From Candidatus Zipacnadia bacterium (GTDB lineage Bacteria > Armatimonadota > Zipacnadia > Zipacnadales > Zipacnadaceae): a stretch of DNA of 62,453 nucleotides. This document shows positions 3,187-60,593 of the stretch, piece after piece. Both the position numbers and the translations under genes were made by a program. The stretch covers positions 1 through 62,453 of the forward strand of contig JALGTU010000002.1 in assembly GCA_029821195.1 (NCBI GenBank). Direction: 5' to 3'. How positions within the stretch are numbered: position 1 is the first letter of the stretch; the number at the start of each line of letters is the position of its first letter. Under the pieces are notes generated by a model. It was not told the origin of the DNA and made no database searches. It saw only the letters and a program-made list of their open reading frames with translations.

Positions 3187-4278
3187 ATGACAGCTAAAGA
3201 ACGCGTAAAGCAAGCGCTGCGTCACCAGGAGCCGGACCGCGTGCCGGTGGACTTCTGGTCGTCGCGGCAGATGGACGATAAGCTGCTCAGCCACCTGGAC
3301 CTGGCAAGCCGCGAAGAGCTGCTGACCCAGTTCGGCGTTGACTTCCGCTACATCGAGGGGCCCGTCTACATCGGGCCGTCGCTGCGGGTTGACCCCGACG
3401 GCACGGCTTACGACGTGCGAGGGGTGGCACGACGGCAGCAGACCATCGCAGGAGACGGCTGGCAGGAGTCATACTGGGAAGTCTCTGACTATCCTCTAGC
3501 CGACTGTACGACCCCTGCGGAGGTCGCGGCTTACGATAAGTGGCCCTCGCCGGACTGGTTCGACTACTCGGTCATCAAGGCTCAGTGTGAGGCCTGCGGC
3601 CAAGCCTGCGTAGTATTCTCGGGCGACCGGCTCAATCGCATCGCCCAGCTCAAGCCGGCGATGTATCTGCGGGGCATTGATCAGATACTGGTTGACCTGC
3701 TGATAGCGCCAGACATTTTTGCGGCAATCGTCGGGCGCATCCGGGACTTCTATCTGGAGTACGAGCGGCGGATACTGGAGGCGGCAGCCGGGGGTATTGA
3801 TCTGCTGATGACCGGCGACGACTTCGGTACCCAGGACGGGCCGATAATGGCGGTGGCGAAATGGCGCGAGACGCTCCAGCCGGGCTTTGCCGCCTTTATC
3901 GAGCTGGCGCACCAGTATAACGTACCGGTAATGCACCATAGCTGCGGAGCGGTAAGCGAATTCATCCCTGACTTCATTGCTAGCGGTCTGGACGTGCTGC
4001 AGAGCATCCAGCCGGGTGTGCGGGGGATGGACCACGCGCGGATCAAGCGAGAATTCGGGCGCGATATCGCCTTTGCGGGAGGGATCAGTATTCAGCACAA
4101 CCTGCCGCACGGGTCCCCCGAGCAGGTGCGCGAGGAAGTCAAGCAGCTATTCGAGATAATGAAGCCGGGGGGCGGCTACTTCGCCGGGACAGCCCACAAC
4201 CTCCTGGCGGATGTGCCGAGCGACAACGTACTCGCGCTTATTGAGGCATACCGCGAATTCGCCGGCTATGAGCACTAG
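3187..4278 (+). CDS. Uroporphyrinogen-decarboxylase (URO-D) family protein, MtaA/CmuA-like
   Basis: 363 aa with an ATG start. The N-terminal KERVKQALRHQEPDRVPVDFW, together with the DDFGTQDGPIM and HHSCG segments, matches the URO-D/methylcobamide methyltransferase fold family. The TAG stop (4276-4278) overlaps the TA flank of repeat copy A. Confidence 0.7.
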   Translation: MTAKERVKQALRHQEPDRVPVDFWSSRQMDDKLLSHLDLASREELLTQFGVDFRYIEGPVYIGPSLRVDPDGTAYDVRGVARRQQTIAGDGWQESYWEVSDYPLADCTTPAEVAAYDKWPSPDWFDYSVIKAQCEACGQACVVFSGDRLNRIAQLKPAMYLRGIDQILVDLLIAPDIFAAIVGRIRDFYLEYERRILEAAAGGIDLLMTGDDFGTQDGPIMAVAKWRETLQPGFAAFIELAHQYNVPVMHHSCGAVSEFIPDFIASGLDVLQSIQPGVRGMDHARIKREFGRDIAFAGGISIQHNLPHGSPEQVREEVKQLFEIMKPGGGYFAGTAHNLLADVPSDNVLALIEAYREFAGYEH

Positions 4279-4500
4279 CACGAGCAATTGATGAACGGCT
4301 TGTGGGGAACCCGCTTTTTAGGCAAAAAAAGCCGGTTCCCCACACCCTTCCGGCAAAAACTTGGAAAGTTGAATAACGGGGTTGACAATTGCATCGTGTC
4401 GTTGTTCCAGAAAACTGGGCATTGACGGTAAGGGGCTTTGACAGCTATCCATAGCTCCTGAGATGCTTGTTCAGCTTATCTTGGTGGATAGTACGAACTA
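4276..4500 (+). mobile_element. MITE-like intergenic element, copy A (225 bp, TA to TA)
   Basis: It shares the core ATGAACGGCTTGTGGGGAACCCGCTTTTTAGGCAAAAAAAGCCGGTTCCCCACACCCTTCCGGCAAAAACTT with copies B-E, at the same 15-nt offset from the left TA. The hairpin is at 4301-4344. The right end CTTGGTGGATAGTACGAAC-TA is a degenerate version of the right TIR. The element fills the whole gap between two convergent genes. Confidence 0.65.
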
Positions 4501-6498
4501 GATCCAGAAAATCTGGTTGTAAGTGTGCCCGGTTAGCCAGTCTATGAAGACCCAGGCGACATTGCAGGTGAACTGGCCGCAGATAAGCCCGAGGAAGATC
4601 GGCCGCATGTTCTGGTAGGCAACCATGCCGCCATAGCGCAAAATCGCGCCCTTGGTCAGCCAGGTGAGGAAGATCGTGAACCAGAGCTGGTCCATGAGCC
4701 AAACACTGCCGATGCAGTAGCCAATGGGATGGAAAGGCCACTTGGGCGAGCGAAAGCGCAGGGCAGTAAGCACCAGGTAGATGGCGGCTCCCAGCGCGGT
4801 ATAGACCCACCCGCCGACACTGGGACTGGGCTGCCTGCCACACCAATCCTCCACCCACTTGAAAGCCGCCTGCGGGCTGCCGCTAAAGAACCAGTTACTC
4901 ATCGTCACGCCGCCCTGCGAGTAAGCGCGGGTCATCGTCAGCCACATAGAGGCGACTAAAGCCACCAAGATGGCTATCACAAACCCCCAGAAGAGCCGGC
5001 GATGTTTGGCCTCGATGACGCCGGTCATCTTCAGGCTGTTGGCGGCGGAAGCCATTACGAAGGTGCGGATATCGCTGGTCCAGATGTAGGTCAGGCCTAG
5101 GGCAGTCATCCCCCGGTCGCCCAGCACGCCCCAGCCGAGCCAACCAGGCACCACCGCCGAGGCGATGGCGGGGGCGACGGCCTCGGCCATACCGCTCTCG
5201 GCGACGATCCGCGTCAGCCCAATGAAGAAGACGAATGCCATAAGCAGAAACAGTGGCACGACCAGCGCCGGCAGACCCGACGCCCCCAGCCACCAGCCAA
5301 TCAAGACCAGCCCGATGATCGTCCCCCAGAAGGCGACGCGATAGGAGAGAATCTCCTTCTCATCAACCTCTGGGCCGGCCTCGCCGGTCACGCGCTTCCA
5401 AATCAGGCTCAGGTGTCCGCGAGCAACCCACAGCCCGGTGACGACCAGGGCGAGGAAGGCGCCGGTGCCGACGTACTTGAGGATAGGGTCACGCGCGCCG
5501 TAGATGCCCAGGTTCTCGGTACTGGCGATGCCCAAAGAGGTCATAGCCGCGCGCACCGCCTGGGTCAACAGGTTGAAGAACCATAGGCTGAAACTGGTCT
5601 CCAAGCTCACCAGATAGAAGAAACCAATCATCGGGAAGCTGATGCGAAAGCTCAGTGACCAAATGCCCTTGACCAGGGCAACTGACTGGACGAGTTTGAG
5701 ACTCGGCACCGGCGGGAAGTAGTTGTGCAAGCCGACCCAGCTACCCGCCAGGAAGGCGATGCCGAAGCCGATCCAGAAGGTTTTCCGCGAAAGAATAACA
5801 GGCCAGCCCTTGCTGTCAGCGCCGGCCAGTGCCAGGGGCAGATAGGTCAGCGGGTAAGCGAGGCGCTCGTTGTCCACCCACTGCTTACGCAGCAGTACCA
5901 TCATGCAAATCATCACGAAGTGGACAGCGAGCAGCATCGGAATCCACGCTGACAAGGACGGGACCCAGGCGCTCCACGGCACCTGCCCACCCGCCGGAAG
6001 ACCCTCGAACAGATAGGTGATTACCGGTGTGTCGGGGGCGGCGCCCTGCGGGGCTGCCCACGCCGGGATATTGGGCACGATGGTCTCCGCCCAGTTGTTC
6101 TCAGGGGTGGCGTAGTAGTGCGCTCCGGTGGACAGAGGTATTACCTGCGCAGTCAGGCCCATAGTAGGAACGGCGGAAGCGATCACCATCATCGTGTAGA
6201 TGGTGATCAGTTCAGCAGTGGTCAGCGCAAGGCTGCGGCGAAAGCGCAGCAACAGCAAGTTCGGGCCAGCCACGAGGACAAAAAGCAGAGCCACTGCGGC
6301 GGGCGTGCTGAAGTCCAGGGCCATATACGAGGCGTGCAGCACGTGGATAGCCCAAGGCGCAAGCAGCCCGATAGCCGCTGCCCCCACCGCGCCCAGCAGC
6401 AGGGCACGACCAGTTATTACGCCGTGCTGGCGCCCGCCGCTGTTGTTGAGGGTCTGATTTGCCCGGGATTCGTCAGGCTTAGCTGCCATTTCTGCCAA
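4498..6498 (-). CDS. Large polytopic membrane protein, DUF6785/DUF6784-like
   Basis: 666 aa with many hydrophobic helices. It is clearly paralogous to 60648..62453. Shared blocks are QVPW(S/D)AW, W(V/I)D(N/H)ERL(A/V)(Y/F)PL, FP(F/L)HPIGY and ILRYGG. Confidence 0.75.
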   Translation of the reverse strand: MAEMAAKPDESRANQTLNNSGGRQHGVITGRALLLGAVGAAAIGLLAPWAIHVLHASYMALDFSTPAAVALLFVLVAGPNLLLLRFRRSLALTTAELITIYTMMVIASAVPTMGLTAQVIPLSTGAHYYATPENNWAETIVPNIPAWAAPQGAAPDTPVITYLFEGLPAGGQVPWSAWVPSLSAWIPMLLAVHFVMICMMVLLRKQWVDNERLAYPLTYLPLALAGADSKGWPVILSRKTFWIGFGIAFLAGSWVGLHNYFPPVPSLKLVQSVALVKGIWSLSFRISFPMIGFFYLVSLETSFSLWFFNLLTQAVRAAMTSLGIASTENLGIYGARDPILKYVGTGAFLALVVTGLWVARGHLSLIWKRVTGEAGPEVDEKEILSYRVAFWGTIIGLVLIGWWLGASGLPALVVPLFLLMAFVFFIGLTRIVAESGMAEAVAPAIASAVVPGWLGWGVLGDRGMTALGLTYIWTSDIRTFVMASAANSLKMTGVIEAKHRRLFWGFVIAILVALVASMWLTMTRAYSQGGVTMSNWFFSGSPQAAFKWVEDWCGRQPSPSVGGWVYTALGAAIYLVLTALRFRSPKWPFHPIGYCIGSVWLMDQLWFTIFLTWLTKGAILRYGGMVAYQNMRPIFLGLICGQFTCNVAWVFIDWLTGHTYNQIFWI

Positions 6499-8059: not shown

Positions 8060-11000
8060 GTGAAGCCAACTATCGGGGAATTAACCAGAATCCCGGAAGA
8101 CATCGGGCCGGTCTCGCTCAGCAACCTGAGCGCGCTGCGCGACGAACTGGCCCAGGAGCCTGCTGAGCTGTCCCTGACTGCGGCTGCCCAGGTGACGCGA
8201 CTGCTGGACGACTACATTGCCGCCGACGGCGACGAAGCGGAGCGGACACTCGGAGAAATCCTGGATTCAGTCCTGGGCGAGGGTGGCGAGGGCTCGAGCA
8301 TCCTGGTGCAGGGCCCCGCGCGCAGCGGGAAATCGCATCTGCTGGCGGCGGCGGCCCTGCTGCTGGAATACCCGGCAGCGTGGCGCATCTTCTTGAGCCG
8401 ACACCCGCACTTTGAGGCGTGGCACCAGAGATTTCAACAAGCCCGTCCAGTGCTGGTCGTGCCCATCGCGCTCGATGAGCACCGGGGCGACCGGGACCAC
8501 CTCGAGGACATTGTCTTCGATCAAACGGCCCGGGAACTGGCGCGCCCCAAGTACAATGCCGCCGTGCCGCTGTCCCAGCAATCGTATGCACTCGAGCTGA
8601 TTGATCGCCACGTCGTGCCTCGCTACGCCGAGCAGCTCAACGAGCAGGCCCGCCACGAGCCGGGTGGCTACACCACCTGGGAGCAATTGCGGCGCCGTAG
8701 CCCGGGCGACGCTATTGCCCTGGCGCAACATGTCGCGCAACAACTGGGTTATCCGCTGGACTTCCGCCAGTCGCGCATCGAACGACTCTCACGCCTGCTG
8801 CAGCTCCTGCTCGAAGAGCATCTGCAGGGCGTGGTCTGGCTCATTGACGACCTGTCCGGGTTCCTGGCCAGCGCGGACCGCAAGGCCGTGCACAGCGACT
8901 GCAGCTTTCTGGAGTTCATCGGCCAGCGCAGCAAGATCGAGCCGCTGCACATCGTCGCAGGGATTGAGGACGGGCTTGAGTACATCATCGGTCTGGAACC
9001 GTACCTGATGGGCAGTCTGCGTAATCTGTACAAGGCGAGCTACGATCTGTCGGCCAAACAGATGACGCGGGTCGCCCGGCAACGGATGATCGGCCGGACC
9101 AGCGCCACCGAGCTCGATGCGGCCATCGAGCAGACCCTCGCGAGCTACCGAGATGCATTCGGCGAGCTAAGCTTCAGCGCCGATGACCTGCCGCAAACCT
9201 ATCCGCTCCACCCGCTGGCCCAGCAGTGCCTGGAAGCGAGTACGCAACGTTATGTCGCCGCCGCCGATGGCCTGCTGCAGTTCGCCGCCGCACCCGAGAG
9301 CAGCGGAGGCCTGGCGGCATTCGCTGACCGCGCCAATTGCCAGCTTATCGGCCCGAGCGAGCTGGTCCGTTACGCTCAGACCGCAGTCAGCTCGCACCCC
9401 GAGGCCAGCGCATACTTCAACGAGGTGCTTGACTTCTATGAACGCAACATCGTCGAACTTGTGCCGGAGAATCCCGAGCTCGCGCTGGACGTCATCCGCT
9501 GCATGATTGTCCTGCGTCTGGGCAACGTCCCGGCGTCGGCGAAAACGATTGCCGAATGCCTGGGTGTAGAGGCCAGCGGCGGCGCGCGGCTAACTGTGAC
9601 GCAGGCCCGCGAGATGCTGGAAGTGCTGCGCCTGACCAGTAACTATGTGGACGTACGCCGCGGGCCGGACCCGGAGTCTTCAGTCTACCTGATTGATGCG
9701 TATACCAACCTGACTAACCTGGTGCGGCAACGGCTCAACGCCGTCAAGGCCACGTTCGCCAACGAGGACTCGCGCCTGTGGCAGCGCATAATTGCCGCCT
9801 GTGAGACTCCCGCCTTCCCCCTGGCCGAATTGACGCGCAACCAGCTCTATGAGGTAGTCTGGGAAAACACGATCCGGTGCGTCGCGGTGCAGATTGCCAA
9901 CTTGTCCAGCCTCACTGCTCCGCAACTGGAGGCGCAATCGGCCGAACTGGCTGATCCGGCCACCCGTCAGGACTGTCAGATATTCCTCGGCGAGCTGCTG
10001 CGCGTGGCTGACCAGGAGAGCAGTTGGTCGCATCTGCAAGCTATCGCGGGCAAAGCGCGCTGGCACCACGGTCTGGTAGCGTGGCTACCCCGCCCCCTGA
10101 GCGCGGAGGAAGTGGAGATCGTTAAGCAAGCCGCGGCCTGCCACCAACTGCTGCAGCAGCCAGCACCGGAGGCCGAACTGCAAGGTGCGTGGCGGGGACG
10201 GCTGGTGGAAGAGCGGATGACGCTCGAGAACCAAGTCCGGCAAATTGCTGCCGATGCTTATTACCATGGGCAGATTTCTACATTTAGCGGCCTGGCGGTT
10301 TCTGCCGAGCAACTGGCGGCTACCACCGGGGACTGGGCGATTACGCTGGCGAGAATTGCCGAACCCAGCTTCAGCGCGCTGTTTCCCGATTTTTCCGCAG
10401 TAGCTCCACACCGGGTCATTACCAGTCAGGACCAGATTGACCAGATAGTGGCTGAGCTAATTACACCCGTTGAGATTGCCAATGCGGAGGGCTCGACCAT
10501 CCGCGAACTCGCCGAGGCTTTCCTGCTGCCGATGGGCCTGGTGCAGATTGATGACGAGACCATGCGGGTTGATCCCAGCACGAGCCCGGTGGCCGAGGAG
10601 ATTCTCAACCGCATCCGCCAGCGCGACCAGACCCCCCAGCAGGAACAGGGCCGGCCGCTGGCCTGCGCGGACCTCGCCCAGCACCTGCTCAAGTCACCAC
10701 TGGGACTGCCGCCGCATCTTTTCGAGCTGGCCATTGCCGTGCTGGTTCGCCTGGGCTATCTGGTGGCGCTGGACGCCGAGCACCAACCGCTGCGGTTCGC
10801 GGACATCCCCCTGCCCCTCGCCAGGCACGTCCACTACATTGCCCGGCCCGCGCTGCTGCCACTGACCAGTTGGCAGGCGCTGGGGAAGGTGGCGCGTATT
10901 GTCCTGGACACCGGCATCCCCGGCCCGAGCCTGCGCTTTCAACACCAGATTTGGCAGGAGTTGGTCACGGCCCGCGCGACCCAGCTTCGGCGCCTGGGCG

Positions 11001-12088
11001 AGATTGAGCAGCGACTCGACGAGCTGATCACCGCGCTGGAGCAGGCGCATAATAAGTGGAATGACTGCGCCCTGGACATCTCGGCGGCGAGTGAGTTTTA
11101 CGAGATGATTGAACCGAGCAAGCCCAGCTCGGAAGGGATCAGCGACTTCATCGGCAAGCTGGCGCCGTACCTCGACGCTAGCGAAGGCAGCACGCTGCTG
11201 CGGAACCTGCTGCGGCGGATTGATATCCTGGATGAGTTTGTCGAGCGGATGGGCCCGGAGCTAATCCGAATCAAGCAGTACCTGGCCAGCCCCCTGCTGC
11301 ACCTGCCCGAGGGCTCGGACCTGGGCCAGCGCCGTGATGCCCTGCACGAAGTGCTCGACAGCGGCGAGCAAATCATCGCCGACCAGGTGGCGTTCCACCG
11401 AGCAGTGCAGGTGTTTCTGACCCGTTACAAGCGCCACTATCAGGGCTGGCATAGCCGGGCACACCGTAACCCGACCTTCGAACAGTACCGGCGATTCCGG
11501 GCCACCCCCGAATACCGGGCGCTGACCCAGCTCCAGGGCCTCGATATCAAGGTCGAGCACGACGCGGCAAGCGTCGGTGAGATGATCGAGAATTTCCTGG
11601 CCCAACAGTGTAACAACCGCAATCTCGCCGAGGACCTCGAGCGCGAGCCAGTGTGCCCGCAGTGTCACCTCCGGCTCAACCAGGAGCTCCAACTCCCCGC
11701 CGTGGACGAACTGGCCCAGGCTACTCAGGACGGCCTGAGGGAATACTTCGCCGCGCTCAGCGGCTCCGGACTGCGCCAGAAGCTGAGTACCTACGCTCTG
11801 GCCCTGCCCCAGCAGGGCGACGTCAATGCCAAGCTCCACGCGCTGACCGAACTGGTCGGCGAGCCCAGCCCGACGCAGATCCTAAAACTGCTTACCGACG
11901 ACGTGATCGGGCATATCAACCGGGTTATCGCGGGCAAAACACTCATACCGCGTGATTTTGGTCAACTGCACGATATGCTGGCGGGCCGAGCGCTGACCAA
12001 ACAGGAAGTGCAGGCGCTCTTTAGCGCGTGGGTAGAGGGCAGTGGCGAAGATCTCGAGAACGACGACCTCCTCCAGATCGAAGAATAG
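8060..12088 (+). CDS. Very large P-loop NTPase, BrxC/PglY-like (DUF6079-type architecture), orphan
   Basis: 1,342 aa. An 84-aa leader precedes Walker A GPARSGKSHLL (8312-8344) and Walker B-like VVWLIDD (8831-8851). A long helical body follows, with a single CPQC (11654-11665) near the C-terminus. The family assignment comes from recalled architecture, not from a search. Confidence 0.55.
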   Translation: MKPTIGELTRIPEDIGPVSLSNLSALRDELAQEPAELSLTAAAQVTRLLDDYIAADGDEAERTLGEILDSVLGEGGEGSSILVQGPARSGKSHLLAAAALLLEYPAAWRIFLSRHPHFEAWHQRFQQARPVLVVPIALDEHRGDRDHLEDIVFDQTARELARPKYNAAVPLSQQSYALELIDRHVVPRYAEQLNEQARHEPGGYTTWEQLRRRSPGDAIALAQHVAQQLGYPLDFRQSRIERLSRLLQLLLEEHLQGVVWLIDDLSGFLASADRKAVHSDCSFLEFIGQRSKIEPLHIVAGIEDGLEYIIGLEPYLMGSLRNLYKASYDLSAKQMTRVARQRMIGRTSATELDAAIEQTLASYRDAFGELSFSADDLPQTYPLHPLAQQCLEASTQRYVAAADGLLQFAAAPESSGGLAAFADRANCQLIGPSELVRYAQTAVSSHPEASAYFNEVLDFYERNIVELVPENPELALDVIRCMIVLRLGNVPASAKTIAECLGVEASGGARLTVTQAREMLEVLRLTSNYVDVRRGPDPESSVYLIDAYTNLTNLVRQRLNAVKATFANEDSRLWQRIIAACETPAFPLAELTRNQLYEVVWENTIRCVAVQIANLSSLTAPQLEAQSAELADPATRQDCQIFLGELLRVADQESSWSHLQAIAGKARWHHGLVAWLPRPLSAEEVEIVKQAAACHQLLQQPAPEAELQGAWRGRLVEERMTLENQVRQIAADAYYHGQISTFSGLAVSAEQLAATTGDWAITLARIAEPSFSALFPDFSAVAPHRVITSQDQIDQIVAELITPVEIANAEGSTIRELAEAFLLPMGLVQIDDETMRVDPSTSPVAEEILNRIRQRDQTPQQEQGRPLACADLAQHLLKSPLGLPPHLFELAIAVLVRLGYLVALDAEHQPLRFADIPLPLARHVHYIARPALLPLTSWQALGKVARIVLDTGIPGPSLRFQHQIWQELVTARATQLRRLGEIEQRLDELITALEQAHNKWNDCALDISAASEFYEMIEPSKPSSEGISDFIGKLAPYLDASEGSTLLRNLLRRIDILDEFVERMGPELIRIKQYLASPLLHLPEGSDLGQRRDALHEVLDSGEQIIADQVAFHRAVQVFLTRYKRHYQGWHSRAHRNPTFEQYRRFRATPEYRALTQLQGLDIKVEHDAASVGEMIENFLAQQCNNRNLAEDLEREPVCPQCHLRLNQELQLPAVDELAQATQDGLREYFAALSGSGLRQKLSTYALALPQQGDVNAKLHALTELVGEPSPTQILKLLTDDVIGHINRVIAGKTLIPRDFGQLHDMLAGRALTKQEVQALFSAWVEGSGEDLENDDLLQIEE

Positions 12089-12311
12089 TACCAATAAGCG
12101 ATGAACGGCTTGTGGGAAACCCGCTTTTTAGGCAAAAAAAGCCGGTTTCCCACACCCTTCCGGCAAAAACTTTGTAAGTTGAGCAAGGCAGTTGACAACT
12201 GGATCGCGTCGTGGTTCACAGAAAACTGCGAATTGGGGTAGGAGGCTTTGACGGCTATTTCTACGGCGCTGAGAGGCTCATTAAGTTTGTCCTCGTGAAT
12301 AATGTAGGCTA
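12086..12311 (+). mobile_element. MITE-like intergenic element, copy B (226 bp)
   Basis: The left TA is the TA of the TAG stop of the 1,342-aa gene. The hairpin is at 12111-12154 (TGTGGGAAACC/GGTTTCCCACA). The right TIR CCTCGTGAATAATGTAGGC is followed by TA (12310-12311). Confidence 0.65.
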
Positions 12312-12428
12312 ACCCATACATCTGGCCTCGCCAGCTCTCTGGGACAATACGAGCAGCTTGTTCGGGAACTTCGTATCTCCTGCACCCGTCAAATGATTGA
12401 GCCTAAGGGACCCAAGTAGGCAACCATC

Positions 12429-13145
12429 ATGAGCACACCCAACGCCCAAAATTTGCATCGCATGACTGTGGGGGTGGCCGTGCTGGCCATCGCCGGAGCC
12501 ATCGGACTGGCGTTGGTCGTGCTGTGGCCTCGACTGCCACCTACTGAAGAAGCGACTCCCGCGCCGCGCGAGGAGCAAGCCGAACCGGGCGTGACCATCA
12601 CGCGCCCGCTGATCAAGCATACGGAGAATGGGCGGCTCGCCTGGCAAGCGCAGCTCCGGGAACTTCATCTGTCCCACGGCGGCGAAATGCTCGAGGCTAA
12701 GGGCCTCGAGGAGGCCATTATCTATAGTAAGGCGGGCGCGCCACTGGTGCGGATAACTGCCGACAAGATCAGCGGCAATACCGGGCAGCGAGACTTCGAT
12801 GTCAGCGGAAATGTGCGGGTGGTCTCGTACCGGGGCGCGATTATCACTACCGCTGAAGCGAGTTGGAACCAGAAGGAGGAGGTGATCCGATGCCCGGGTA
12901 AGGTCACGCTGAAGAGCAAGCAAGCGATCATTACCGCAACTAAGCTAGACTACTTCGCCGCCGAGGACCTGATAAAATGCCCGGAGCAGGTGCGGATGTA
13001 TGCCGGCGATAACACGGTGATCGGCCGCAAGCTAGTATACAATATCGAGACGGGCAACTTCGCTCTCAACGAGGTGCAGATGGTCTTCCACGCCGAAGAG
13101 GCCAAAGAAAAACTGAGCGAGATAAGGGAGCTGCAAGAAGAATGA
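12429..13145 (+). CDS. LptC-like periplasmic LPS-export protein (N-terminal membrane anchor plus OstA-like fold)
   Basis: 238 aa. One N-terminal TM helix is followed by beta-jellyroll-like repeats (ISGNTGQRDFDVSGNVRVV..., VIGRKLVYNIETGNFAL). The stop overlaps the next gene (ATGA at 13142-13145). Confidence 0.5.
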   Translation: MSTPNAQNLHRMTVGVAVLAIAGAIGLALVVLWPRLPPTEEATPAPREEQAEPGVTITRPLIKHTENGRLAWQAQLRELHLSHGGEMLEAKGLEEAIIYSKAGAPLVRITADKISGNTGQRDFDVSGNVRVVSYRGAIITTAEASWNQKEEVIRCPGKVTLKSKQAIITATKLDYFAAEDLIKCPEQVRMYAGDNTVIGRKLVYNIETGNFALNEVQMVFHAEEAKEKLSEIRELQEE

Positions 13146-28384: not shown

Positions 28385-29539
28385 TCAGAGTCCCGCCTTC
28401 TCCCGCAGTAGGTCTACTGCGTCCAGTCGTTCCCATGTGAAGTCCGGCTCTTCCCGGCCGAAATGGCCGTAAGCAGCAGTGGGCCGGTAGATCGGCCGCC
28501 GCAGGTCGAGGTATTCGATAATGCCGCGCGGGGTCAGGTCGAAGTTGTCAACAATAACTCTCTCGATCTCGGCCTCGGACAGCCTCCCAGTACCAAAGCA
28601 GAATACGCCCAGCGAAAACGGCTCGGCCTCGCCGATGGCATACGAGATGTGCACCTCGCAACGGTCCGCCAGGCCCGCAGCTACGACGTTCTTCGCCAGA
28701 TACCGCATCATATAACTGCCGCTGCGGTCCACCTTCGTCGGGTCTTTCCCGCTGAAGCAGCCGCCCCCGTGGCGGGCCCAGCCGCCGTAGGTGTCCACGA
28801 TTATCTTGCGACCGGTTAGCCCGGTATCGGCCTGCGGCCCGCCCGTCACAAAGCTACCTGTGCCGTTGACCAGTATTTCATCCGCCAGTGCGTCTGTTTG
28901 CAGTTCCTCGGGAATCACCGGCATAACCACCGCGTCAATCAGGTCGGCCCGGATCTGCTCCTGGCTTATCCCCGCCCGGTGCTGGGCAGCCAGCAGCACC
29001 TTCACGACCTCCACGGGCCTGTCATCCTCGTAGCGCACCGTCACCTGACTCTTGCCGTCGGGCCGTAGATACCCGACTTCACCAGTCTTGCGCACCTCGG
29101 CAAGGCGACGACAGAGCTTGTGCGCCAGCATAATGGGCATCGGCATATACTCGGGAGTGTCGTTGTTGGCATACCCGATCATCATGCCCTGATCACCTGC
29201 GCCCCCGGTATCCACGCCCTGAGCGATATCCGGGGACTGCTCGTGAATCGCAGTCAGAACGCCAATAGTGTCACAATCAAAGCCGTACTTGGCCCGCGTA
29301 TAGCCGATCTCGCGCACCGTCTCCCGAACAACTTCTTCGACGGGGCAATATGTCTCCGTGGTCACCTCCCCGGTGACCAGGCAGATACCGGTAGTCACTA
29401 TCGTCTCCACGGCGACCCGCGCCGCCGGGTCTTCGCCTATGATATGGTCGAGAATTGCGTCGGAGACCTGGTCACAAATCTTGTCGGGATGCCCTTCGGT
29501 AACGGACTCTGAAGTAAACTTGAAATCGTTACTCGCCAA
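28385..29539 (-). CDS. metK: S-adenosylmethionine synthase
   Basis: 384 aa with [15 protein letters not shown] and GGAGDQGMM motifs and the conserved C-terminal domain. A TTG start is preceded by AAGAGGAGA. Confidence 0.95.
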
Positions 29540-29555
29540 TTGCCTCGTCTCCTCT

Positions 29556-29782
29556 TAGCTCGGATTATTCATGAACGGCTTGTGGGGAGCCCGCTTTTTA
29601 GGCAAAAAAAGCCGGTTTTCCCCACCCTTCCGGCAAAAACTTTGAAAGTTGCGTAACGCAGTTGATAGTTGCATCGTCTCGCTGCTCGCAACGAACTGTG
29701 AACTGCCGCCAATGCCTTTTGAGGGGCGCCTGCACGTCTTTCCAAGACTCATCCCTTCTGTCTTCGTGAATAACGCAGGTTA
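29556..29782 (+). mobile_element. MITE-like intergenic element, copy C (227 bp)
   Basis: It is TA-flanked. The left TIR is GCTCGGATTATTCATGAA; the right TIR (reverse complement) is ACCTGCGTTATTCACGAA. The hairpin is at 29581-29625. By eye it is about 85-90 percent identical to copy D, with two identical blocks longer than 50 nt. It lies between the coaBC stop and the metK start. Confidence 0.8.
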
Positions 29783-29794
29783 GGGTCATGAGGG

Positions 29795-31048: not shown

Positions 31049-31058
31049 AGCTTGTCCC

Positions 31059-31284: not shown

Positions 31285-31292
31285 GACCTCGC

Positions 31293-31940: not shown

Positions 31941-32037
31941 AATGGCATGGGCGCCCAAATACAGGGCATGGCTGTTGGAATGGGCCAGGACTGCATCAAG
32001 TGTATAGTTTAGCACAACGACGCGGCGGAAGCAATCG

Positions 32038-36700: not shown

Positions 36701-39700
36701 TCCATGACACACTCAACATTGTCTACAAATACGTTCACGAACTTCGCCGGATTGCCGGTCGTGCCCGCGTAGGTGTCAGTATCGGTATATACCACGTAGT
36801 AGCGATACGAGCGGTCAGAGAAGCCGCTGCGCGGCACCAGTTCCGCCGAGGCGGTGAACGAAGCGCCCACGTATGCACTTAAGTCGAGAGTTTGATCGGA
36901 CAATTGGATGGTGTTGGTGTCCGGATCATGAGCGGCGACCATATAGCCGCCACCGGGACTGTCGGTGGCGAAGTTATGCCCCGGTATCGGCGGGGTTGCT
37001 GCGATATAGACAGCCACCACCGGGTCGCCATCGAGGAGATTGGTGGCCAGGCTATCGTCGTAGGTGAATATGTAGGGGTTAGCCGGGTCAACAGTAGCGA
37101 TGGTGAGGCCGTTACCGACCATGAACCCGAGCAGAGGCGGGGCATTGGGGGCGACATCGGGGCCGTCGGCCGCGGTAGCGGTGTGGTTATAGGGCCCAAA
37201 GAACTGGGTGGCATCACCGTTGTTATACCACGCCGCGCCGTCCCAGGCCTGTGCCTTGAAGCTGTGATTGCCCTCAGCCAGGTATACGGGATTGCTGGTG
37301 CGATAGAGCACGCCGTCGGCGTAGGTGTTGTCCTCGGTATAGACTTTGGTCATCTCGTAGGTCTGAGCCGCATCGTCGTCAACGCGCACGCGGATGGCCG
37401 AGGGCGGGTTATTCTCGGCATCCGTGTACAGTACGAAGAGGTAGAACTGTGTGGCCGGCGTGCCGTCGTAGTCGGCCGCGGTCCCTGGGTTGGTGTCGTA
37501 ACCCCAGGACAAGAAGCCGTCGTCGCGGCCCTCGTAGATGCGGAAGGTGTTGCCAGCCTGCACATTAGTCAGCGGACTGGCCACCGTTATCGAGGTAGCT
37601 GTACTGGCGGTTATTTCAAAGACGCTGAACTGGGCGAAGCCGCTGAGGATCTCCAGATACTTGCCGGCCAGGACGTCGTCCGGGGCATAGCCGGGTAAAT
37701 CGCCGGGCCGGTCGTATTCGAGAGTGGTACTATCCGGAACGCTTGTGACGATGTCAGGTTGCGGCGGGGCGAAATAATAGCCACTCAGTATCGGCGCAGT
37801 CTCCTCGAGGACCTCCGGCCCTTCATAGTAGCCTTGGGCGGGTAGCCGCCGCATTTCCCCTTCGACCTTCTGGTCAATCGGGTCGGCATCTGAGGTCATA
37901 AAGTACTGCTGCCAGTTAATCCAGTAGGCCCAGTTATCCCAGAATTCGAAGTAGTAGTGGTGGGTGCCCGGGTCGAGCTCGACGCCCGCGCGCGCGGTGC
38001 TGAAGGTGTAGCGCACCCCGTCGCGGTAGTTAATGTCCAATGGGTCAACCGCATTCATTGTAACCGCGAACCAGTCGGTGATATTGAACAGGTCGCCGAT
38101 AGCTATGCCGCTGCCACTCATATCGGTGGCGGTAATGGTTGAGCCAGTATTGGCGGTGATAACGAACTCATTGCCAGCCTCGGCGCCGGTCTGCATTCTG
38201 ATCTTGTTACCGACCAGCGAGTCGTCGGCGTACAGCGTGCCCGGCACACTGTAACTGATCTGATCGCCACCGGGCAGCCCCGTGACCGCCGCCTGCCCCT
38301 CAACATCGCCAAACAGATCAATCCAGAGGATGCTCTTAAACGGCGGGTCGCCCATCCGGTCGGCATTGAGCACCTCGCCGTCCTGGTCAGCGTAGGTTAC
38401 TTCCCAGACGAAGTCGCCGCGCTGGGGCCCGGAGACGGGCACCAGGCTCCGGTCACTTAGCGTCGGACGGTTGTTAACCCGGAACCAGTAGTAATCGTTG
38501 TCGCCCGGGGCCACACCGATCTGCCCGAAATCGTCGCTGGGCCGGTTCGGGTAGATAGCGCTGTGCATGCCATCGCCAGCCCGGAAGTAATACTGGTAGT
38601 CGCCAGCGTTGCCGCCGCCCGGTAACTGGACGGCATTGGCCTCGTGGTAGTAGACACAACCGTCGGTGTAGGTCGAATCGGTGGGATACACCTTGTTCAT
38701 CGCGTAACCGATCCACGAGGTAAGCGGGGCGCCGTCTTCGTCCACTTTGCGGATCAACACCTGGACGAACTCGGGCGCCAGGTTCTCCGACTGCCAGTAG
38801 TTAATACGGAAGACGAAGTTAGTCTCGGTCGTCCACTTGCCGCCGCGGAAGTCCGAAGGCTGGCTCAGATCCGGGTCGTAGGTGCCCAGATCGCCCCAGA
38901 TGTTGACGTAATTGGGCCAGATCGTATCCTGGTTAGTAAAGCGCAGGGGCGAGTAATCACCTACGGCATACCCACCGCCGACACCGCTAGCAGTCGGGCC
39001 AACCACATCTTGCCACGGCTCAGTACCCGGCGCCAGGCTGCTGGGCAGAGGATTGAACTGGTTATCCAGCGCACCCAATATATTCGGGCCGATGTACATA
39101 AGCTCTTGCCAGGGCGTGGGGAAACCTCGCTCAGGATCGCTCAATACCCTCGACTCAAAGTACGGATGGGCGGTCAGAACCGGGTCAACCTTGGGGTACT
39201 GGGTGTCGGACTGGCTGTCGTAGGGGTAGCCGTACCCACCCGATGCCGAATCGGTATACCAGGTATCAATATGCTCAGGGTAGACGTTGCCATACTCGTT
39301 AACCAGGTGGATGACTTCAAGCGAGTTGCCCGGCCGTCCCCGCAAGACCACGGCGCAGGGACCGATCTTTCGGCCGGCGCCATAGTCGTCAATAATCGCC
39401 TTAACCGGTGGATCAAAGTCGCGGGTGGTCAGGAATTCGTAGCGATGTCCACCGGGCTGCATCGTGACGTATGCATTAGAGGTCGGCATCCCGGTGCGAC
39501 CGGTAATAGCGGTATCCCACTTGTCAGTGCCTGGCGGATCATATTGAAGCGTGAAGATATTATTCAAAAGCTGCAGGTAGTTGGTAGGCCGCAGCAGATA
39601 CTTGTAGACTATGCCGCTGGGGCCCGAGCCACTTTCCCGATCCATAAACAAAGGTTCATTGTAAACGCGATCAATGATCAGGATAGCCTGGGGTTGGTCG

Positions 39701-40701
39701 TCACCTGGATAGAGCACCGGTGCATCGCCGGTGTGATCGTAGCGATGATCGTCTAATTCCCAATACATCCAGTCATCCCACGAGTTGTCGCGGTAGACCC
39801 TTTTGCGGAAGTGGTCAACGTCGGTCCCGTTTGATTGAATGGCGCGGTAGGCAAAGTAGTCAAAATCCACCCGATGATAGCTGCTGCCCGCCCAGTGCTT
39901 GCCACGCCACTGACAGGTGATCTCGGGCCAGCCCCAATCGCCAGTGAAGTACTTGATGCGGAAGGTATAGAGGTCGCTTCCTGAGCCGTTATCCGGGTCG
40001 GTGGGGCCGCCGGGCACCGAATCTTCGATCATCAGCGGGTCTGTGCCGACGGCCTCGCCCGAATACCACGCCTGCATCTCGCCGGAGGTCCAGATCGCGT
40101 CACCGATGTAGCCTTTCTCGGCAGGCGGCGGGGACCCGCCCCGGATTGCCAGCGGCACAGTAATCTGCGTGCCCTTGGCCTCAACAGGATTACCACTGGT
40201 AGGAGGTTTGCCGCTGCTAAGCCAGTATACCGTAAAGGTATAATTGGGGGAACTGGGACTGTGACTGGTCGTCGGAATAGTACCGGCCAGCCACTCGCTG
40301 TAATAGTTAGAAAATGGCCCCAGCGTGATGACCATCGTCCGGGTCGCCGGATATTCGATATTACAGCCGAAGTGATAGTCCCGGTCGCTGGGCCGAGCAG
40401 GGTCGCCCTCGAGGCTGAGCAGGTCGCCGCTCAATCCCTGCGCGTAGGTCCAGCCGCTGGGCGCAGCCACGCTGGTGCTGAAACTGGCACCGCCAAAGTA
40501 AACTCGTTCAATGGATTCGCTTGTGCCCCACGTGATGACCGCGCGGAACCAGCGCTGGGAGTTGGCGGTGGCTATAGTCGGCCAACAACTGACACTGACG
40601 GCAGGCGTAGCATGCACTGATGGAGGGCTAATCTGGACGAGAATAGCCGAAAGAACCAGAGCAAGAGCGACTGTGGCAAAAGAGCTGTGCCGTATCCGCA
40701 T
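33745..40701 (-). CDS. Giant secreted multi-domain surface protein with FN3-like and CarboxypepD_reg-like repeats and a FlgD-Ig/T9SS-type C-terminal domain
   Basis: I prefer ATG at 40701, which is preceded by GGAGGGAGAG and gives the signal peptide MRIRHSSFATVALALVLSAILVQISPPSVHA. There are two tandem FN3-like modules (...WYWRVQTVDARDLASDWS..., ...YHWHVRTVNGLQSEWS...). There are three ISGTV/ISGTI...DGTY(T/R) modules. The C-terminal ...ISGRVIKTL...GTHSQAWNLRSNGGTVVPRGMYLVRIEA... is typical of FlgD-like or T9SS sorting domains. Confidence 0.8.
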   Translation of the reverse strand: MRIRHSSFATVALALVLSAILVQISPPSVHATPAVSVSCWPTIATANSQRWFRAVITWGTSESIERVYFGGASFSTSVAAPSGWTYAQGLSGDLLSLEGDPARPSDRDYHFGCNIEYPATRTMVITLGPFSNYYSEWLAGTIPTTSHSPSSPNYTFTVYWLSSGKPPTSGNPVEAKGTQITVPLAIRGGSPPPAEKGYIGDAIWTSGEMQAWYSGEAVGTDPLMIEDSVPGGPTDPDNGSGSDLYTFRIKYFTGDWGWPEITCQWRGKHWAGSSYHRVDFDYFAYRAIQSNGTDVDHFRKRVYRDNSWDDWMYWELDDHRYDHTGDAPVLYPGDDQPQAILIIDRVYNEPLFMDRESGSGPSGIVYKYLLRPTNYLQLLNNIFTLQYDPPGTDKWDTAITGRTGMPTSNAYVTMQPGGHRYEFLTTRDFDPPVKAIIDDYGAGRKIGPCAVVLRGRPGNSLEVIHLVNEYGNVYPEHIDTWYTDSASGGYGYPYDSQSDTQYPKVDPVLTAHPYFESRVLSDPERGFPTPWQELMYIGPNILGALDNQFNPLPSSLAPGTEPWQDVVGPTASGVGGGYAVGDYSPLRFTNQDTIWPNYVNIWGDLGTYDPDLSQPSDFRGGKWTTETNFVFRINYWQSENLAPEFVQVLIRKVDEDGAPLTSWIGYAMNKVYPTDSTYTDGCVYYHEANAVQLPGGGNAGDYQYYFRAGDGMHSAIYPNRPSDDFGQIGVAPGDNDYYWFRVNNRPTLSDRSLVPVSGPQRGDFVWEVTYADQDGEVLNADRMGDPPFKSILWIDLFGDVEGQAAVTGLPGGDQISYSVPGTLYADDSLVGNKIRMQTGAEAGNEFVITANTGSTITATDMSGSGIAIGDLFNITDWFAVTMNAVDPLDINYRDGVRYTFSTARAGVELDPGTHHYYFEFWDNWAYWINWQQYFMTSDADPIDQKVEGEMRRLPAQGYYEGPEVLEETAPILSGYYFAPPQPDIVTSVPDSTTLEYDRPGDLPGYAPDDVLAGKYLEILSGFAQFSVFEITASTATSITVASPLTNVQAGNTFRIYEGRDDGFLSWGYDTNPGTAADYDGTPATQFYLFVLYTDAENNPPSAIRVRVDDDAAQTYEMTKVYTEDNTYADGVLYRTSNPVYLAEGNHSFKAQAWDGAAWYNNGDATQFFGPYNHTATAADGPDVAPNAPPLLGFMVGNGLTIATVDPANPYIFTYDDSLATNLLDGDPVVAVYIAATPPIPGHNFATDSPGGGYMVAAHDPDTNTIQLSDQTLDLSAYVGASFTASAELVPRSGFSDRSYRYYVVYTDTDTYAGTTGNPAKFVNVFVDNVECVMEEYDPTDLDVSDGKVYYYDIPSLSASQSHSYYFIASDGLANVRFPDIADTPNYFSGPTVTVNNPPYAPPYPPADGWSPINGVSVDNQNPTLDWPDGSDPDPWDTANNLTYIVQFSTTDDFATVDYEYDTTDYGGPGITQLDVPDPIPYGWWYWRVQTVDARDLASDWSVVQSFKVDHPPYAPDSGFAPTGTIGTLTPNLQWDPGTDPDADDPPSAMLYHVELDDDPAFASPMISPDLGGPGDPEYGVTGLAVTNFQVDTTLALVPNVAYHWHVRTVNGLQSEWSATQTFTIIIPVFSISGTVYDTDGTTPLEGVTVECYNSLNQKIRADQVTGTDGTYQFTDLPADTYRIAPLFPPFTFTPPDASVVVSSSDVSGQDFTLVAGAYSISGTITVTGGGSAQGFLVTAGIRSDTTNAAGQYMISGLADGTYTVTPSAPAGQYYDFTPADYTVTVSGASVTNRDFTADPKAFTISGTATHYQGALLANIAISAVQVGNPAATSSATTAADGTYTLTNVSAGDWEVTASDPTATYVLVPSSQTVTVPGPGGQNVSDIDFTGYSGERHTYDPAGLYFTGVPVQPIESYAPDVFATTQVWWWDPTQSPPYIGTGHPNRNVLLQVAAGKGFFVYYDNATTLNVAGTAVPTAGAYTVNLGTRWNMVANPFTNNLPMANIAPTVPGTVLPFAYVFRPSDQSYLLVTDRAGINVARSYIEPWEGAWMYAATGTTATIQMTAGTASAQGEMAPRQLDVGESGWVIPVVARVGSRRDVTGAVGVAEGIEPYSIPNPPSVPDSVDLYFIGDDGSQLAQSITPVTGEKLSWDFVVATDIADSDVEVVMPDLSQVPNDLSVTLSDLDGDQTVYMRTAPSYVFRSGAEGGLRHFRLEVGAQQSGGLVITSATAQSSGVGTVITYGVTQACRVSMEIMNISGRVIKTLMAEEAASEGTHSQAWNLRSNGGTVVPRGMYLVRIEAVADNGQRVEGLCPLTISR

Positions 40702-40982
40702 TACTCTCCCTCCTGGAGTTGGAGCGGGTTGGTGCAATCCATACTGCATCTTATGCCGCGTAGCTAACATACAGGGACAGCCGTCCTACCCCGACCACAC
40801 CTCTGGCTTCTGGCACTAAAACTACCTGTCCTCCATACCAGCTACCGTGGTAGTTGCCAGACGCCAAGGCTCATACAAGCAGATTTTACAACAACACGCA
40901 GAAGAAGTCAACCTATTGCATCAATCCAATGCTCATTATTAACAAGCAACAACTCTACCCACTCTGCCCGCTGCGTCCACCG

Positions 40983-55439: not shown

Positions 55440-55459
55440 AGCACCGAGCATAGCGCTAT

Positions 55460-57679: not shown

Positions 57680-57705
57680 GGGCGCATGTCCTCCAGCAAT
57701 CTGAT

Positions 57706-59611: not shown

Positions 59612-59668
59612 TAGACATCCTCCTGTTGCTTTGCGCCGATCGAGTTGCGGAAGGTGGCGTTTGCCGCC

Positions 59669-60301
59669 TTAGCGATGTACGACGGTCGCATCGAAGTCAT
59701 CGTCCCGTAACTTCTGTGCCAGCTTGTCTGCATCCTCGCGGCTGGCAAAGCTGTCCACGTTCACGCGGTGGTAGGTGACGCCATCCTTTGCAATCTGCCC
59801 GACAGTCGGCGCGTAGCCCTTTGCCTGGAGACGCTCAACCTGGTTGCTCGCATTCTCCACCTGCAGGAACGAGCCAGCTACCACCACCCACTCACCTGTC
59901 CCACGGGTACTGGCCTCGTCGCGGGCTACACCCCGGTCAGCCGCCGCAGCATTCAGTTCAGCACCGTCCTGCGGGCCCGAGTCTTCGACCTGCCGCTCAA
60001 GCTCGTGCATCTTGATCTCAGCCTTCTCGCCCTCGCTGGGGGCCCGCTCCTCGATCTCGACCACCGCCTGCAAAGGGGGCTCACCCTGCTCCGAGCCGGG
60101 CCCGGTCTCCGTGCCGCCGTCATCTGTGGGCAGAGCAGTCTGCCGCTGCTTGTCCAGGTCCACCTCGGCCAGTCGCTGCCCCACCCAGTTGCGCCCAGCC
60201 TGATAGCTGAGCAGGCCGGCAATTACACAGATCAGCAGTACTATCAGCCAGAAGCCGAGGGCTTCACGCCTTTGTTGCTCCCTGGTGTTCCCCCGTAGCA
60301 T
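59669..60301 (-). CDS. SPOR-domain (peptidoglycan-binding) membrane-anchored protein
   Basis: 210 aa. An N-terminal TM helix and a charged linker are followed by the C-terminal WVVVAGSFLQVENASNQVERLQAKGYAPTV...YHRVNVDSFASREDADKLAQKLR, which is a SPOR fold pattern. Confidence 0.7.
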   Translation of the reverse strand: MLRGNTREQQRREALGFWLIVLLICVIAGLLSYQAGRNWVGQRLAEVDLDKQRQTALPTDDGGTETGPGSEQGEPPLQAVVEIEERAPSEGEKAEIKMHELERQVEDSGPQDGAELNAAAADRGVARDEASTRGTGEWVVVAGSFLQVENASNQVERLQAKGYAPTVGQIAKDGVTYHRVNVDSFASREDADKLAQKLRDDDFDATVVHR

Positions 60302-60366
60302 AATCTACCCTCCCCATCTTGCTAAGCTAGTGTAACAGTTGCTGCGTCGCGGGATAGTAATTGCCC

Positions 60367-60593
60367 TAACCCGGAAAATTCATGAACGACTTTCGTGAAG
60401 AACCCGCTTTTTGGGAAAAAGCCGGTTTTTCACACTTTTCCGGCAAAAACTTCTAATAGTGAGCAACAGGGCGACAAATACAGCATGTCGTTATTCGTAA
60501 GAACCTGTGAATTGGCGTTTATGCAGTGTACGACACTTTGGGCTCTCTTGCAGATGTGTACTCCTTGTGCTGTGTGAGTAGAGGTTAATGATA
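60367..60593 (+). mobile_element. MITE-like intergenic element, copy E (227 bp, most divergent)
   Basis: The left end TA-ACCCGGAAAATTCATGAACGA is followed by the hairpin at 60395-60433 (GTGAAGAACC/GGTTTTTCAC) and the GCCGG...CCGGCAAAAACTT core. The right half has diverged and the right TIR is not recognisable. However, a TA sits at 60592-60593, which gives the family length. Confidence 0.5.

Follow-up and report, generated by a model that had tools for sequence, protein, structure and literature searches.

The window analysed here, a stretch of 62,453 nucleotides from a Candidatus Zipacnadia bacterium of the phylum Armatimonadota (contig JALGTU010000002.1), contains five copies, A to E, of a short intergenic repeat that looks like a miniature inverted-repeat transposable element (MITE). 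Each copy carries near its left end a core of about 80 nt, and on balance this module of the MITE family probably folds as an alternate-strand intramolecular triplex. The core is made up of AACGG, a 17-bp hairpin, one linker base, a 15-nt segment that we call the third strand, and CTT. What points to the triplex is a three-way covariation, in which the third strand changes together with both arms of the hairpin. An earlier note on this DNA had described five co-oriented copies of a TA-flanked element bounded by terminal inverted repeats (TIRs). The five copies and their common orientation are borne out by alignment and by a 31-base pattern of the core, which has five exact matches in the window, all on the + strand, and none in 100 shuffles.

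The family extends well beyond the window. Five metagenome-assembled genomes (MAGs) have, between them, 32 loci with 38 exact matches to the core pattern. They are Ca. Zipacnadia, CSMAG_2722, CSMAG_1268, CSMAG_1221 and the MAG of an uncultured Armatimonadia bacterium, which matches the window at 95.7% identity along 2.4 kb. A looser pattern added 51 further metagenome loci and found no core in viral contigs. Profile searches gave 50, then 53 copies, more than the pattern did because some loci hold extra, slightly mutated copies. The total exceeds 100 copies, whose upstream flanks form more than 60 unrelated clusters. Sorted by the sequence that follows the core, they fall into two body families (36 and 25 members) and about 25 copies with unique flanks. 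The dispersed repeat family foreseen in the earlier note is therefore real, with about 100 more copies in Armatimonadota MAGs and metagenomes.

Covariation of the third strand with the hairpin

RNAalifold predicts a hairpin of 17-20 bp, at the tip of which a T5 and an A6 run pair with each other. Among 93 distinct cores, 98.2% of the cells are paired, five pairs covary and 87 cells show double changes; none of 500 shuffles reaches the observed values, and slid controls lie far lower. Folded as DNA, the hairpins have energies of -12 to -20 kcal/mol. RNAalifold also predicted an outer CGG/CCG helix, which was ruled out by AACAG variants that are uncompensated.

The third strand mirrors the 3' arm of the hairpin, and its commonest class reads CCTTT CCGGC AAAAA. 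Bases 1-5 (CCTTT type, the lower block) are the parallel complement of the purines of the 5' arm, the middle five (CCGGC) could pair with the 3' arm by Watson-Crick rules, and bases 11-15 (AAAAA, with AAAGA in a sister variant) are a mirror-order copy of the purines of the 3' arm. In the lower block the triplets of left arm, right arm and third strand change as units: columns 20/56/64 hold G-C-C in 88 cases and A-T-T in 4, columns 21/54/65 hold A-T-T in 45 and G-C-C in 33, and columns 22/53/66 hold A-T-T in 65 and G-C-C in 17. Five consistent classes result (GGAAA/CCTTT, GGGAA/CCCTT, GGGGA/CCCCT, GGAGA/CCTCT and GAAAA/CTTTT), several of which recur in more than one body family. When columns are ranked by mutual information, the pairs 54-65, 21-65, 22-66 and 53-66 stand alongside the Watson-Crick pairs. 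In the parallel register the third strand is 97.6% complementary with 58 double-change cells, a number that falls to 13 and 23 when it is slid by one column. The sequences are related and all these cell counts overstate the independent events, which we estimate at about four coordinated changes in the lower block, one change in the upper block and one indel.

Other pairings of the third strand were tried and rejected. If it paired with the left arm in antiparallel fashion, one level would be unpaired in 38 of the 93 sequences; as a direct repeat of the right arm it would covary at other columns than those observed; and pairing of the A5 run with an upstream T run is not conserved in the window type or in the sister variant.

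The sister variant, or variant B, was found via weak profile matches and was not constrained by the search patterns. Where the main variant has GCTTTTT/AAAAAGC in the upper stem and AAAAA at the end of the third strand, this one has CTTTCT/AGAAAG and AAAGA, so that the change of a stem T-A to C-G is matched by a change of A to G in the third strand at the same level. One level is missing from the stem, and so is one base from the third strand (CCGC versus CCGGC). The lower block again tracks the arm, GGGGAAA occurring with CCCCTT and GGGGGAA with CCCCCT.

As for the middle block, it does not mirror the middle of the right arm but is its reverse complement, and in the sister variant it shows C-G, T.G and T-A states. 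It is located at the single conserved mismatch of the hairpin. In six copies, belonging to both variants and to different body families, an optional hairpin of about 36 nt, for instance GCCTACGCTGCACAAGTGCAGCTATGGCGGACAGG, is inserted exactly between the lower and the middle blocks (approximate coordinates: L031 5730-5770, L025 6880-6920, L060 5620-5660, and L082 2510-2560, 5930-5980 and 6800-6850). A de novo scan of about 570 kb for hairpins followed by mirror blocks recovered only this family, and three shuffled sets gave nothing.

The core is the best-kept part of the element

Between orthologous sites of different species, identity is 93-100% in the core, whereas the left terminal repeat reaches 70-86%, the body 60-88% and the flanking genes 84-92%; 35 of the 71 core positions were in the search pattern, so that part of the gap is ascertainment. 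The window copies, which were not picked by the search pattern, show the same contrast between the core and the rest, and about 60% of the neighbour copies found by the profile search alone keep all 35 pattern positions.

Truncated copies point in the same direction. About 14 of the first 50 copies consist of the left 105 nt only, with break points that vary, and among these 50 none retains the right end alone. Moreover, about 25 metagenome cores lie in unrelated flanks, on contigs of 46-62% GC, and no terminal repeats were found within 250 nt on either side of such TIR-less cores. One of them, in locus L066 (1528-1593), lies about 100 nt upstream of, and divergent from, a gene for inositol-3-phosphate synthase (207-1424); among named organisms, Desulfomonile and other Thermodesulfobacteriota have the closest relatives of this enzyme (68-72% identity). 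Three Desulfomonile-like relatives of this locus (L091-L093, 3 x 21 kb) contain no cores. The core module thus seems to be patchily present outside Armatimonadota.

By these sequence comparisons the core, and not the terminal repeats, is the conserved part of the element and also occurs without the MITE frame, two points that the earlier note missed, as it did the three-way covariation and the family-wide reach of the co-orientation. The core module would accordingly be what is maintained after insertion.

Ends, insertion sites and mobility

In 27-29 full-length copies from other genomes the ends follow the pattern TA NNCCGS AWWATTCATRAAC ... GTTYATGAATAAT SCNGNN TA, that is, an imperfect inverted repeat of about 25 nt running up to the TA. 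Of 29 full-length copies, 23 have the TA on the left, 19 have it on the right and 17 have it on both sides, and the outer flanks often read C-TA..TA-G (YTAR-like). Full-length members measure 214-227 bp and have no coding capacity. The recurrence of this pattern outside the window agrees with the earlier description of a dispersed, non-coding, TA-flanked and TIR-bounded family.

The empty sites that the earlier note had proposed to look for exist in two relatives, CSMAG_2722 and CSMAG_1268, for copies C and D. In the window the gap between gmk and coaBC is 244 nt, filled by D, and that between coaBC and metK is 255 nt, filled by C; in the relatives the syntenic genes are only 15 and 19 nt apart. 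Read at the junctions, excision of D or C together with one TA would leave 20 and 30 nt, the ribosome-binding site included. These relatives are only 67% identical at the amino-acid level, too distant for base-level proof of a duplication. A closer comparison is offered by L031 (filled) and L013 (empty, CAGC-TA-TCAG), whose flanks are about 90% identical; the inserted copy is degenerate, with small indels at both junctions. Insertion of the family at different places is well supported by these alignments, and duplication of the TA on insertion is likely. The reading of the repeats as non-autonomous DNA transposons, or MITEs, that moved into short intergenic spacers of Armatimonadota chromosomes is likewise supported by the comparison of ends and sites. 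The TA and the YTAR-like context are the only pointers to a putative IS630/Tc1-mariner origin. The earlier note had suggested a search for an insertion sequence (IS) with matching TIRs. None turned up in about 630 kb of related DNA (the window plus the fetched loci), where terminal repeats away from cores led only to an internally deleted copy (L041 270-340).

A second assembly of the same organism (JGI sample 3300033148), 99.8% identical to the window, also has copies B to E. It gave no strain-level empty site for A, B or E, since all three are present in it. Its copy C differs by an 88-nt deletion (29615-29702; L084 4347) between GCCG direct repeats and by eight substitutions within about 110 nt of the body, which resemble other copies; this clustering suggests gene conversion between copies.

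Co-orientation along the chromosome

Of 25 pairs of neighbouring cores that share a locus and are separated by more than 300 nt, 23 are co-oriented (p ~1e-5); some of the pairs are orthologous between genomes, which brings the effective number nearer to 15. For the main variant alone the figure is 19 of 19 adjacent pairs. By contig, 16 are uniform and three mixed. The co-orientation of the window copies irrespective of gene direction, already seen in the earlier note, is confirmed: A lies between convergent genes, B between + genes, and C, D and E between - genes. Co-orientation is a rule of the whole family and not a quirk of the window, and no association between the orientation of the element and the direction of flanking genes was found.

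The C-rich strand of the window is the one that carries the element's top strand, opposite to most genes, and in two tRNA-bearing loci the element likewise opposes the tRNA genes. These three cases are too few to be more than a hint that the bottom strand is the leading-strand sequence.

A triple-helix interpretation

DNA triplexes, whether H-DNA, foldback (clamp) or alternate-strand forms, combine a purine-rich strand, its Watson-Crick partner and a mirror third strand. In the pyrimidine motif the third strand is parallel to the purine strand, and in the purine motif it is antiparallel; in an alternate-strand triplex its direction stays the same where the purines pass from one strand to the other. 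A strand that mirrors a helix arm has no possible Watson-Crick partner, and the known structure with such symmetry is the triple helix. The third strand of the core follows the mirror rule of intramolecular triplexes, its lower block being parallel-complementary and its upper AAAAA/AAAGA mirroring AAAAA/AGAAA.

In the proposed structure one strand would fold back on itself to form a hairpin clamped by the third strand, that is, an alternate-strand intramolecular triple helix. On the top strand, C+.G-C and T.A-T triples would form below (pyrimidine motif, parallel to the purine arm), and A.A-T and G.G-C triples above (purine motif, antiparallel to the purine arm). This switch of motif fits an alternate-strand triplex because the purines change arms. 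The bottom strand could form T.A-T triples above and G.G-C and A.A-T triples below, without protonation. Purine-motif triples are known essentially from all-DNA triplexes. Because such triples are not known to form without DNA strands, single-stranded DNA, or an H-DNA-like state, is favoured over RNA as the medium. The uniform orientation might then mean that the module acts, or is tolerated, on one chromosome strand only, for example the lagging-strand template. The copies, their terminal repeats and TA, the empty sites, the covariation of the hairpin and of all three strands, and the co-orientation are observed directly; the triplex, its DNA medium, the link with replication and any function are inferred.

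A more far-reaching reading is possible, though less likely than not: the core would be a foldback triplex of about 15 levels, maintained in the single-stranded DNA of one strand, spread by the MITE, co-opted by the host, present across phyla (Armatimonadota and a Desulfomonile-like lineage) and in interaction with replication. As a structure in the lagging-strand template it might pause, prime or mark the fork.

Several observations weigh against these readings, in addition to the relatedness of the sequences, which inflates the covariation counts. An uninterrupted homopurine-homopyrimidine tract is absent; only 5 + 5 levels are canonical, and the five-level middle block breaks the triplex rules. 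The top-strand version requires two to five adjacent protonated cytosines, and the triplex is deduced from covariation in a single family. As to function at every site, C and D have the best terminal repeats and yet mismatched hairpins, A and B combine eroded terminal repeats with hairpins that are perfect (apart from the conserved C.C level in A), and the 99.8%-identical strain has lost half of the C core, which shows that the module is dispensable there. Gene conversion could plausibly homogenise cores without selection and so mimic it. The link with replication is weakened by GC skew and GC3 skew, whose sign is inconsistent relative to the orientation of the element, and by the lack of correlation between this orientation and that of local genes; in its favour are only the skew of the window and the two tRNA-bearing loci. 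Finally, with regard to the MITE, no parent transposase was found in the window and the fetched loci (about 630 kb together), and the only filled/empty pair at the nucleotide level involves a degenerate copy.

Alternative explanations

According to the first alternative, which we consider unlikely, the repeats are ordinary selfish MITEs of the IS630/Tc1-mariner kind; the core would be the subterminal region of an extinct or unsampled parent IS, its mirror relation would have no structural meaning, and it would look conserved through the youth of the copies or through gene conversion. The TA flanks, terminal repeats, small size, intergenic location and empty sites are all typical of such elements, and IS630 elements prefer CTAG/NTAN targets, which the frequent C-TA..TA-G context resembles. 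The clustered single-nucleotide polymorphisms in C point to conversion between copies, and damage to the hairpin is tolerated in C and D, as is the deletion of half a core in one strain. Against this, the terminal repeats, the sole part that a selfish MITE needs, are less conserved than the core at orthologous sites, cores survive alone and right ends never do, and TIR-less cores occur in unrelated contexts of 46-62% GC. Neither descent nor conversion yields a mirror strand that changes with both arms, and a cut-and-paste DDE transposon does not predict that 23 of 25 neighbours are co-oriented.

Less probable again is a transcribed structured RNA, either a small RNA or a triple-helix module of an untranslated region, merely spread by the MITE and acting in ENE-like 3'-end protection or as a terminator or attenuator. 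RNA triple helices are known from ENEs with an A-rich tract (MALAT1, PAN, plant and fungal transposon RNAs) and from telomerase and SAM-II pseudoknots. They resemble the core in their major-groove third strand, their U.A-U and C+.G-C triples and their covariation, and some of them are carried by transposable elements; the lower block of the core is of this known type. The optional 36-nt hairpin, which six copies of both variants have at one and the same point of the third strand, is the kind of insertion that structured RNAs typically show, and the top strand has more G.U-compatible intermediates (about 20) than C.A ones (about 11). Furthermore, some TIR-less cores lie 10-30 nt after TATAAT or TATAGT boxes, and short motifs of a hairpin plus a T run occur on both strands. 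In an ENE, a 3' A tract is clamped by a U-rich internal loop. The core has no U-rich internal loop, and its upper block follows the purine motif (A.A-T, G.G-C), which RNA strands are not known to support. Sense, antisense and convergent contexts are all seen, the orientation is independent of flanking genes, the downstream gene is not consistent, and contig-wide co-orientation is unexpected for RNA elements found in both gene orientations. C and D lie inside the essential gmk-coaBC-metK cluster, where a strong terminator of the - strand would do harm. No Rfam family corresponds to the element: Rfam 15 at gathering scores gave no match in the whole window, and a permissive search of 29400-31400 gave only a chance match (E = 3.8).

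A mobile element moving as single-stranded DNA, of the IS200/IS605-derivative or REP/RAYT kind, with the hairpin as HUH (Y1) site, is very improbable. IS200/IS605 and REP/BIME have conserved single-stranded DNA hairpins, and the orientation of IS200/IS605 is biased relative to replication; excision and insertion at the lagging-strand template would in this case create the orientation bias. The subterminal hairpin with its compensatory changes and the strong co-orientation by chromosome strand would fit, and IS608 recognises its cleavage sites by means resembling base triples. IS200/IS605 and REP/BIME are, however, Y1-dependent and have neither TIRs nor TA duplication, which does not fit the present family; here there are TIRs of about 25 nt with TA at both ends, and a single hairpin instead of one per end. 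The window contains no tnpA, RAYT or tnpB, and no repeated transposase-like open reading frame (ORF) was noticed beside the cores of related loci, whose ORFs were read in part.

We give equally little credence to the idea that a MITE supplied, as with Correia elements, a protein site or transcription signal in double-stranded DNA, which might be an operator, an IHF-like bend site, an A-tract promoter or a bidirectional terminator: the palindrome with its T5/A6 tracts does look like back-to-back terminators, a promoter-like TTGAAA-16-GATAGT follows the core in C and D, and MITEs carrying IHF sites and promoters exist (PMC2229807), but a dimer accounts for the palindrome and not for a mirror repeat that covaries base for base, the stem sequence varies within one genome, which favours recognition of shape over sequence, the -35-like hexamer is not conserved across subfamilies, and both sigma-54 and sigma-70 readings fail on spacing.

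More specific signals were also considered and rejected. The sigma-70 promoter TTGAAA-16-GATAGT of C and D was discarded on account of that hexamer, and a sigma-54 reading of GGCAAAAACTTTG on account of a wrong spacing and the lack of GC at -12. A simple intrinsic terminator is not supported, as only weak hairpins of 4-5 bp precede the T runs and C and D lie in an essential cluster. A cis-regulatory leader of one gene family is at odds with downstream genes that are unrelated or absent. As to coding, the ATG of the left repeat opens frames of 10-24 codons that differ between subfamilies.

Relation to known repeats and significance

GGATTA is also part of the terminal sequence of Correia elements. 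These intergenic elements of Neisseria, also called NEMIS, are about 105-155 bp long, end in TIRs of about 24 bp with a terminal TA and duplicate their target; they have no known transposase, contain functional motifs internally, and are seen at filled as well as empty sites (PMC2229807). The window family is like them in being small, non-coding and intergenic, with TIRs and TA at both termini. It is unlike them in that its core also exists outside the MITE frame; the internal motif of Correia elements is an IHF site, they belong to another phylum, and neither a mirror core nor chromosome-wide co-orientation has been described for them.

RUP of Streptococcus pneumoniae, a TA-inserting MITE tied to IS630-Spn1 and its IS630-family transposase, is the textbook example of such a bacterial link (PMC2229807), and the ISY100 study reports TA targeting by the IS630 family (PMC2170065). 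RUP shares terminal repeats and TA insertion with the window family. Its TIRs match a resident IS and no internal structural or functional motif is reported for it, whereas no matching IS was found here. ERIC (IRU) elements of enterobacteria are 127-bp MITE-like repeats with TA termini that are co-transcribed and affect mRNA stability in an orientation-dependent manner (PMC2229807). The effect of ERIC follows its orientation relative to the gene, whereas the orientation of the window family follows the chromosome strand, and ERIC is without a mirror third strand.

Natural H-DNA is known from long homopurine-homopyrimidine mirror repeats in duplex DNA. The core differs from it as a module of 5+5+5 levels on a hairpin, within a dispersed mobile repeat and with three-way covariation. 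To our knowledge, no MITE with a covarying mirror third strand or with chromosome-wide co-orientation has been described.

If the MITE reading alone holds, the repeats represent a new transposon family in a poorly studied phylum and a marker for annotation and genome dynamics. If the fold is real, it provides rare comparative evidence for a selected DNA or RNA triple helix in bacteria, and if the triplex reading is true, a DNA triplex would for the first time be the feature under selection in a dispersed bacterial repeat. At this length the element lends itself to synthesis, and natural compensatory variants are ready to hand in the five lower-block classes and the sister variant. Through its gene-independent co-orientation it also gives access to a process that distinguishes the strands, be it replication or single-strand transposition; we know of no comparable strand-specific process for TA-flanked elements with TIRs.

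The five copies in the window

The window is an ordinary chromosomal stretch with a GC content of about 61%. Its genes include priA, fmt, metK, coaBC, gmk, smc, ftsY, rodA, mreB, phoH and ybeY, as well as lptC/lptA-like genes, and the copies sit in intergenic gaps among such housekeeping genes. A search for tRNA and tmRNA genes in the window found none, and a repeat search of the window revealed no second repeat family.

Alignment places all five copies, on the + strand, where the earlier note had drawn them. The lengths of 225, 226, 227, 226 and 227 bp from TA to TA that it gave are correct for the ends chosen there. Those of A to D hold; the right end of E is likelier to be the TA at 60586-60587 than that at 60592-60593, and it was moved because of a comparison with the subfamily of E (L002, L003 and L007), so that the copies now measure 221-227 bp. 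Aligned over their whole length, they have a mean column identity of 76%, and the invariant columns cluster in the core, in a block from ATGAACG to GGCAAAAACTT. C and D are about 90% identical over 188 nt, and A, B and E are more diverged, as had been noticed before, chiefly in the right half. Other elements of the first description have held up as well: the shared core, the hairpin and the terminal repeats quoted for D are all found in the sequence, there is no conserved reading frame, indels in the hairpin loop shifting every frame, and a Pfam scan of the 38 larger ORFs revealed no transposase. Three of the TA flanks coincide with stop codons of adjoining genes: the left ones of A and B and the right one of A, the genes being 3187-4278 (+), 8060-12088 (+) and 4498-6498 (-).

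Copy A (4276-4500, +; 225 bp) has eroded terminal repeats, and both its TA flanks lie within stop codons. It is placed between two convergent genes, for URO-D (3187-4278, +) and for a DUF6785/DUF6784 protein (4498-6498, -). Its hairpin (4302-4343, +; GTGGGGAACC..GGTTCCCCAC) is paired throughout except at the conserved C.C level and folds as DNA with -18.9 kcal/mol (z = -3.4). Copy B (12086-12311, +; 226 bp) has kept the right terminal repeat, the left one being eroded. It follows the 3' end of a DUF6079/BrxC-like gene (8060-12088, +) and precedes the 5' side of an lptC-like gene starting at 12429 (+), which is its true right neighbour, not the ORF at 12309-12923 (-). Its hairpin (12112-12153, +; GTGGGAAACC..GGTTTCCCAC) has a DNA folding energy of -18.5 kcal/mol (z = -3.7).

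Copy C (29556-29782, +; 227 bp) has good terminal repeats and is antisense to both of its neighbours, metK (28385-29539, -) and coaBC (29795-31048, -); its hairpin (29582-29623, +; GTGGGGAGCC..GGTTTTCCCC) contains several mismatches. Copy D (31059-31284, +; 226 bp) is antisense to coaBC and gmk (31293-32273, -) and has the best terminal repeats of the five, TA TCCCGGATTATTCATAAAC ... TTCGTGAATAATGCAGGA TA, the left TA and left TIR occupying 31059-31083 and the right TIR and right TA 31260-31284. Its hairpin (31085-31125, +; GTGGTAAACC..GGTTTTCCAC) has a T.T mismatch at one level. Copy E (60367-60587, +) belongs to the separate subfamily that it has in common with L002, L003 and L007, and its terminal repeats are eroded. 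It lies between a gene for a SPOR-domain protein (59669-60301, -) and one for a DUF6785/DUF6784 protein (60648-62453, -), and its hairpin (60395-60433, +) reads GTGAAGAACC..GGTTTTTCAC.

The third strands, all on the + strand, read CCCTT CCGGC AAAAA in A (4345-4359), B (12155-12169), C (29625-29639) and D (31127-31141); in B the first block is the exact parallel complement of GGGAA in the left arm. That of E (60435-60449) reads CTTTT CCGGC AAAAA, and its C to T change at position 2 matches the change of G-C to A-T in the stem.

A few neighbouring genes deserve mention. A and E each adjoin the 3' end of one of the two genes for DUF6785/DUF6784 membrane proteins (4498-6498, - and 60648-62453, -); the two proteins are 27% identical, which may be a coincidence or reflect a very old association. 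The gene next to B (8060-12088, +) encodes a protein of 1342 residues with a match to DUF6079 (BrxC/PglY N-terminal family), perhaps a BREX-type defence ATPase, and stands alone beside this copy. The gene at 33745-40770 (-) encodes a surface-type protein of 2341 residues with CarboxypepD_reg, SdrD_B and FlgD_ig domains, which has a syntenic counterpart of 2042 residues in CSMAG_2722.

Additional observations in related loci

Another short repeat, GTCGCGGCAAGAATGCCGCTCCTACCGGTTTTGTAACAGTC, follows truncated cores in L004 (2250-2330) and L018 (2080-2440). L018 also contains about 600 nt with a small ORF and a full copy of the element, which are not found in its orthologue L004. In L015 (362-2135), a truncated copy lies within a cluster of seven tRNA genes, all on the opposite strand.

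L052 (1031-1200) and L082 (5770-5960 and 2456-2600) contain main-variant cores arranged in tandem with variant-B cores that point the same way. They are 20-130 nt apart, which suggests composite arrays in some organisms. Variant-B cores in L052 (1190-1260), L077 (1100-1170) and L082 (2340-2400 and 4760-4830) are followed by long, perfect, GC-rich palindromes (GCGCAGACC..GTGGTC..GACCAC..GGTCTGCGC), which may be a second repeat family or strong terminators.

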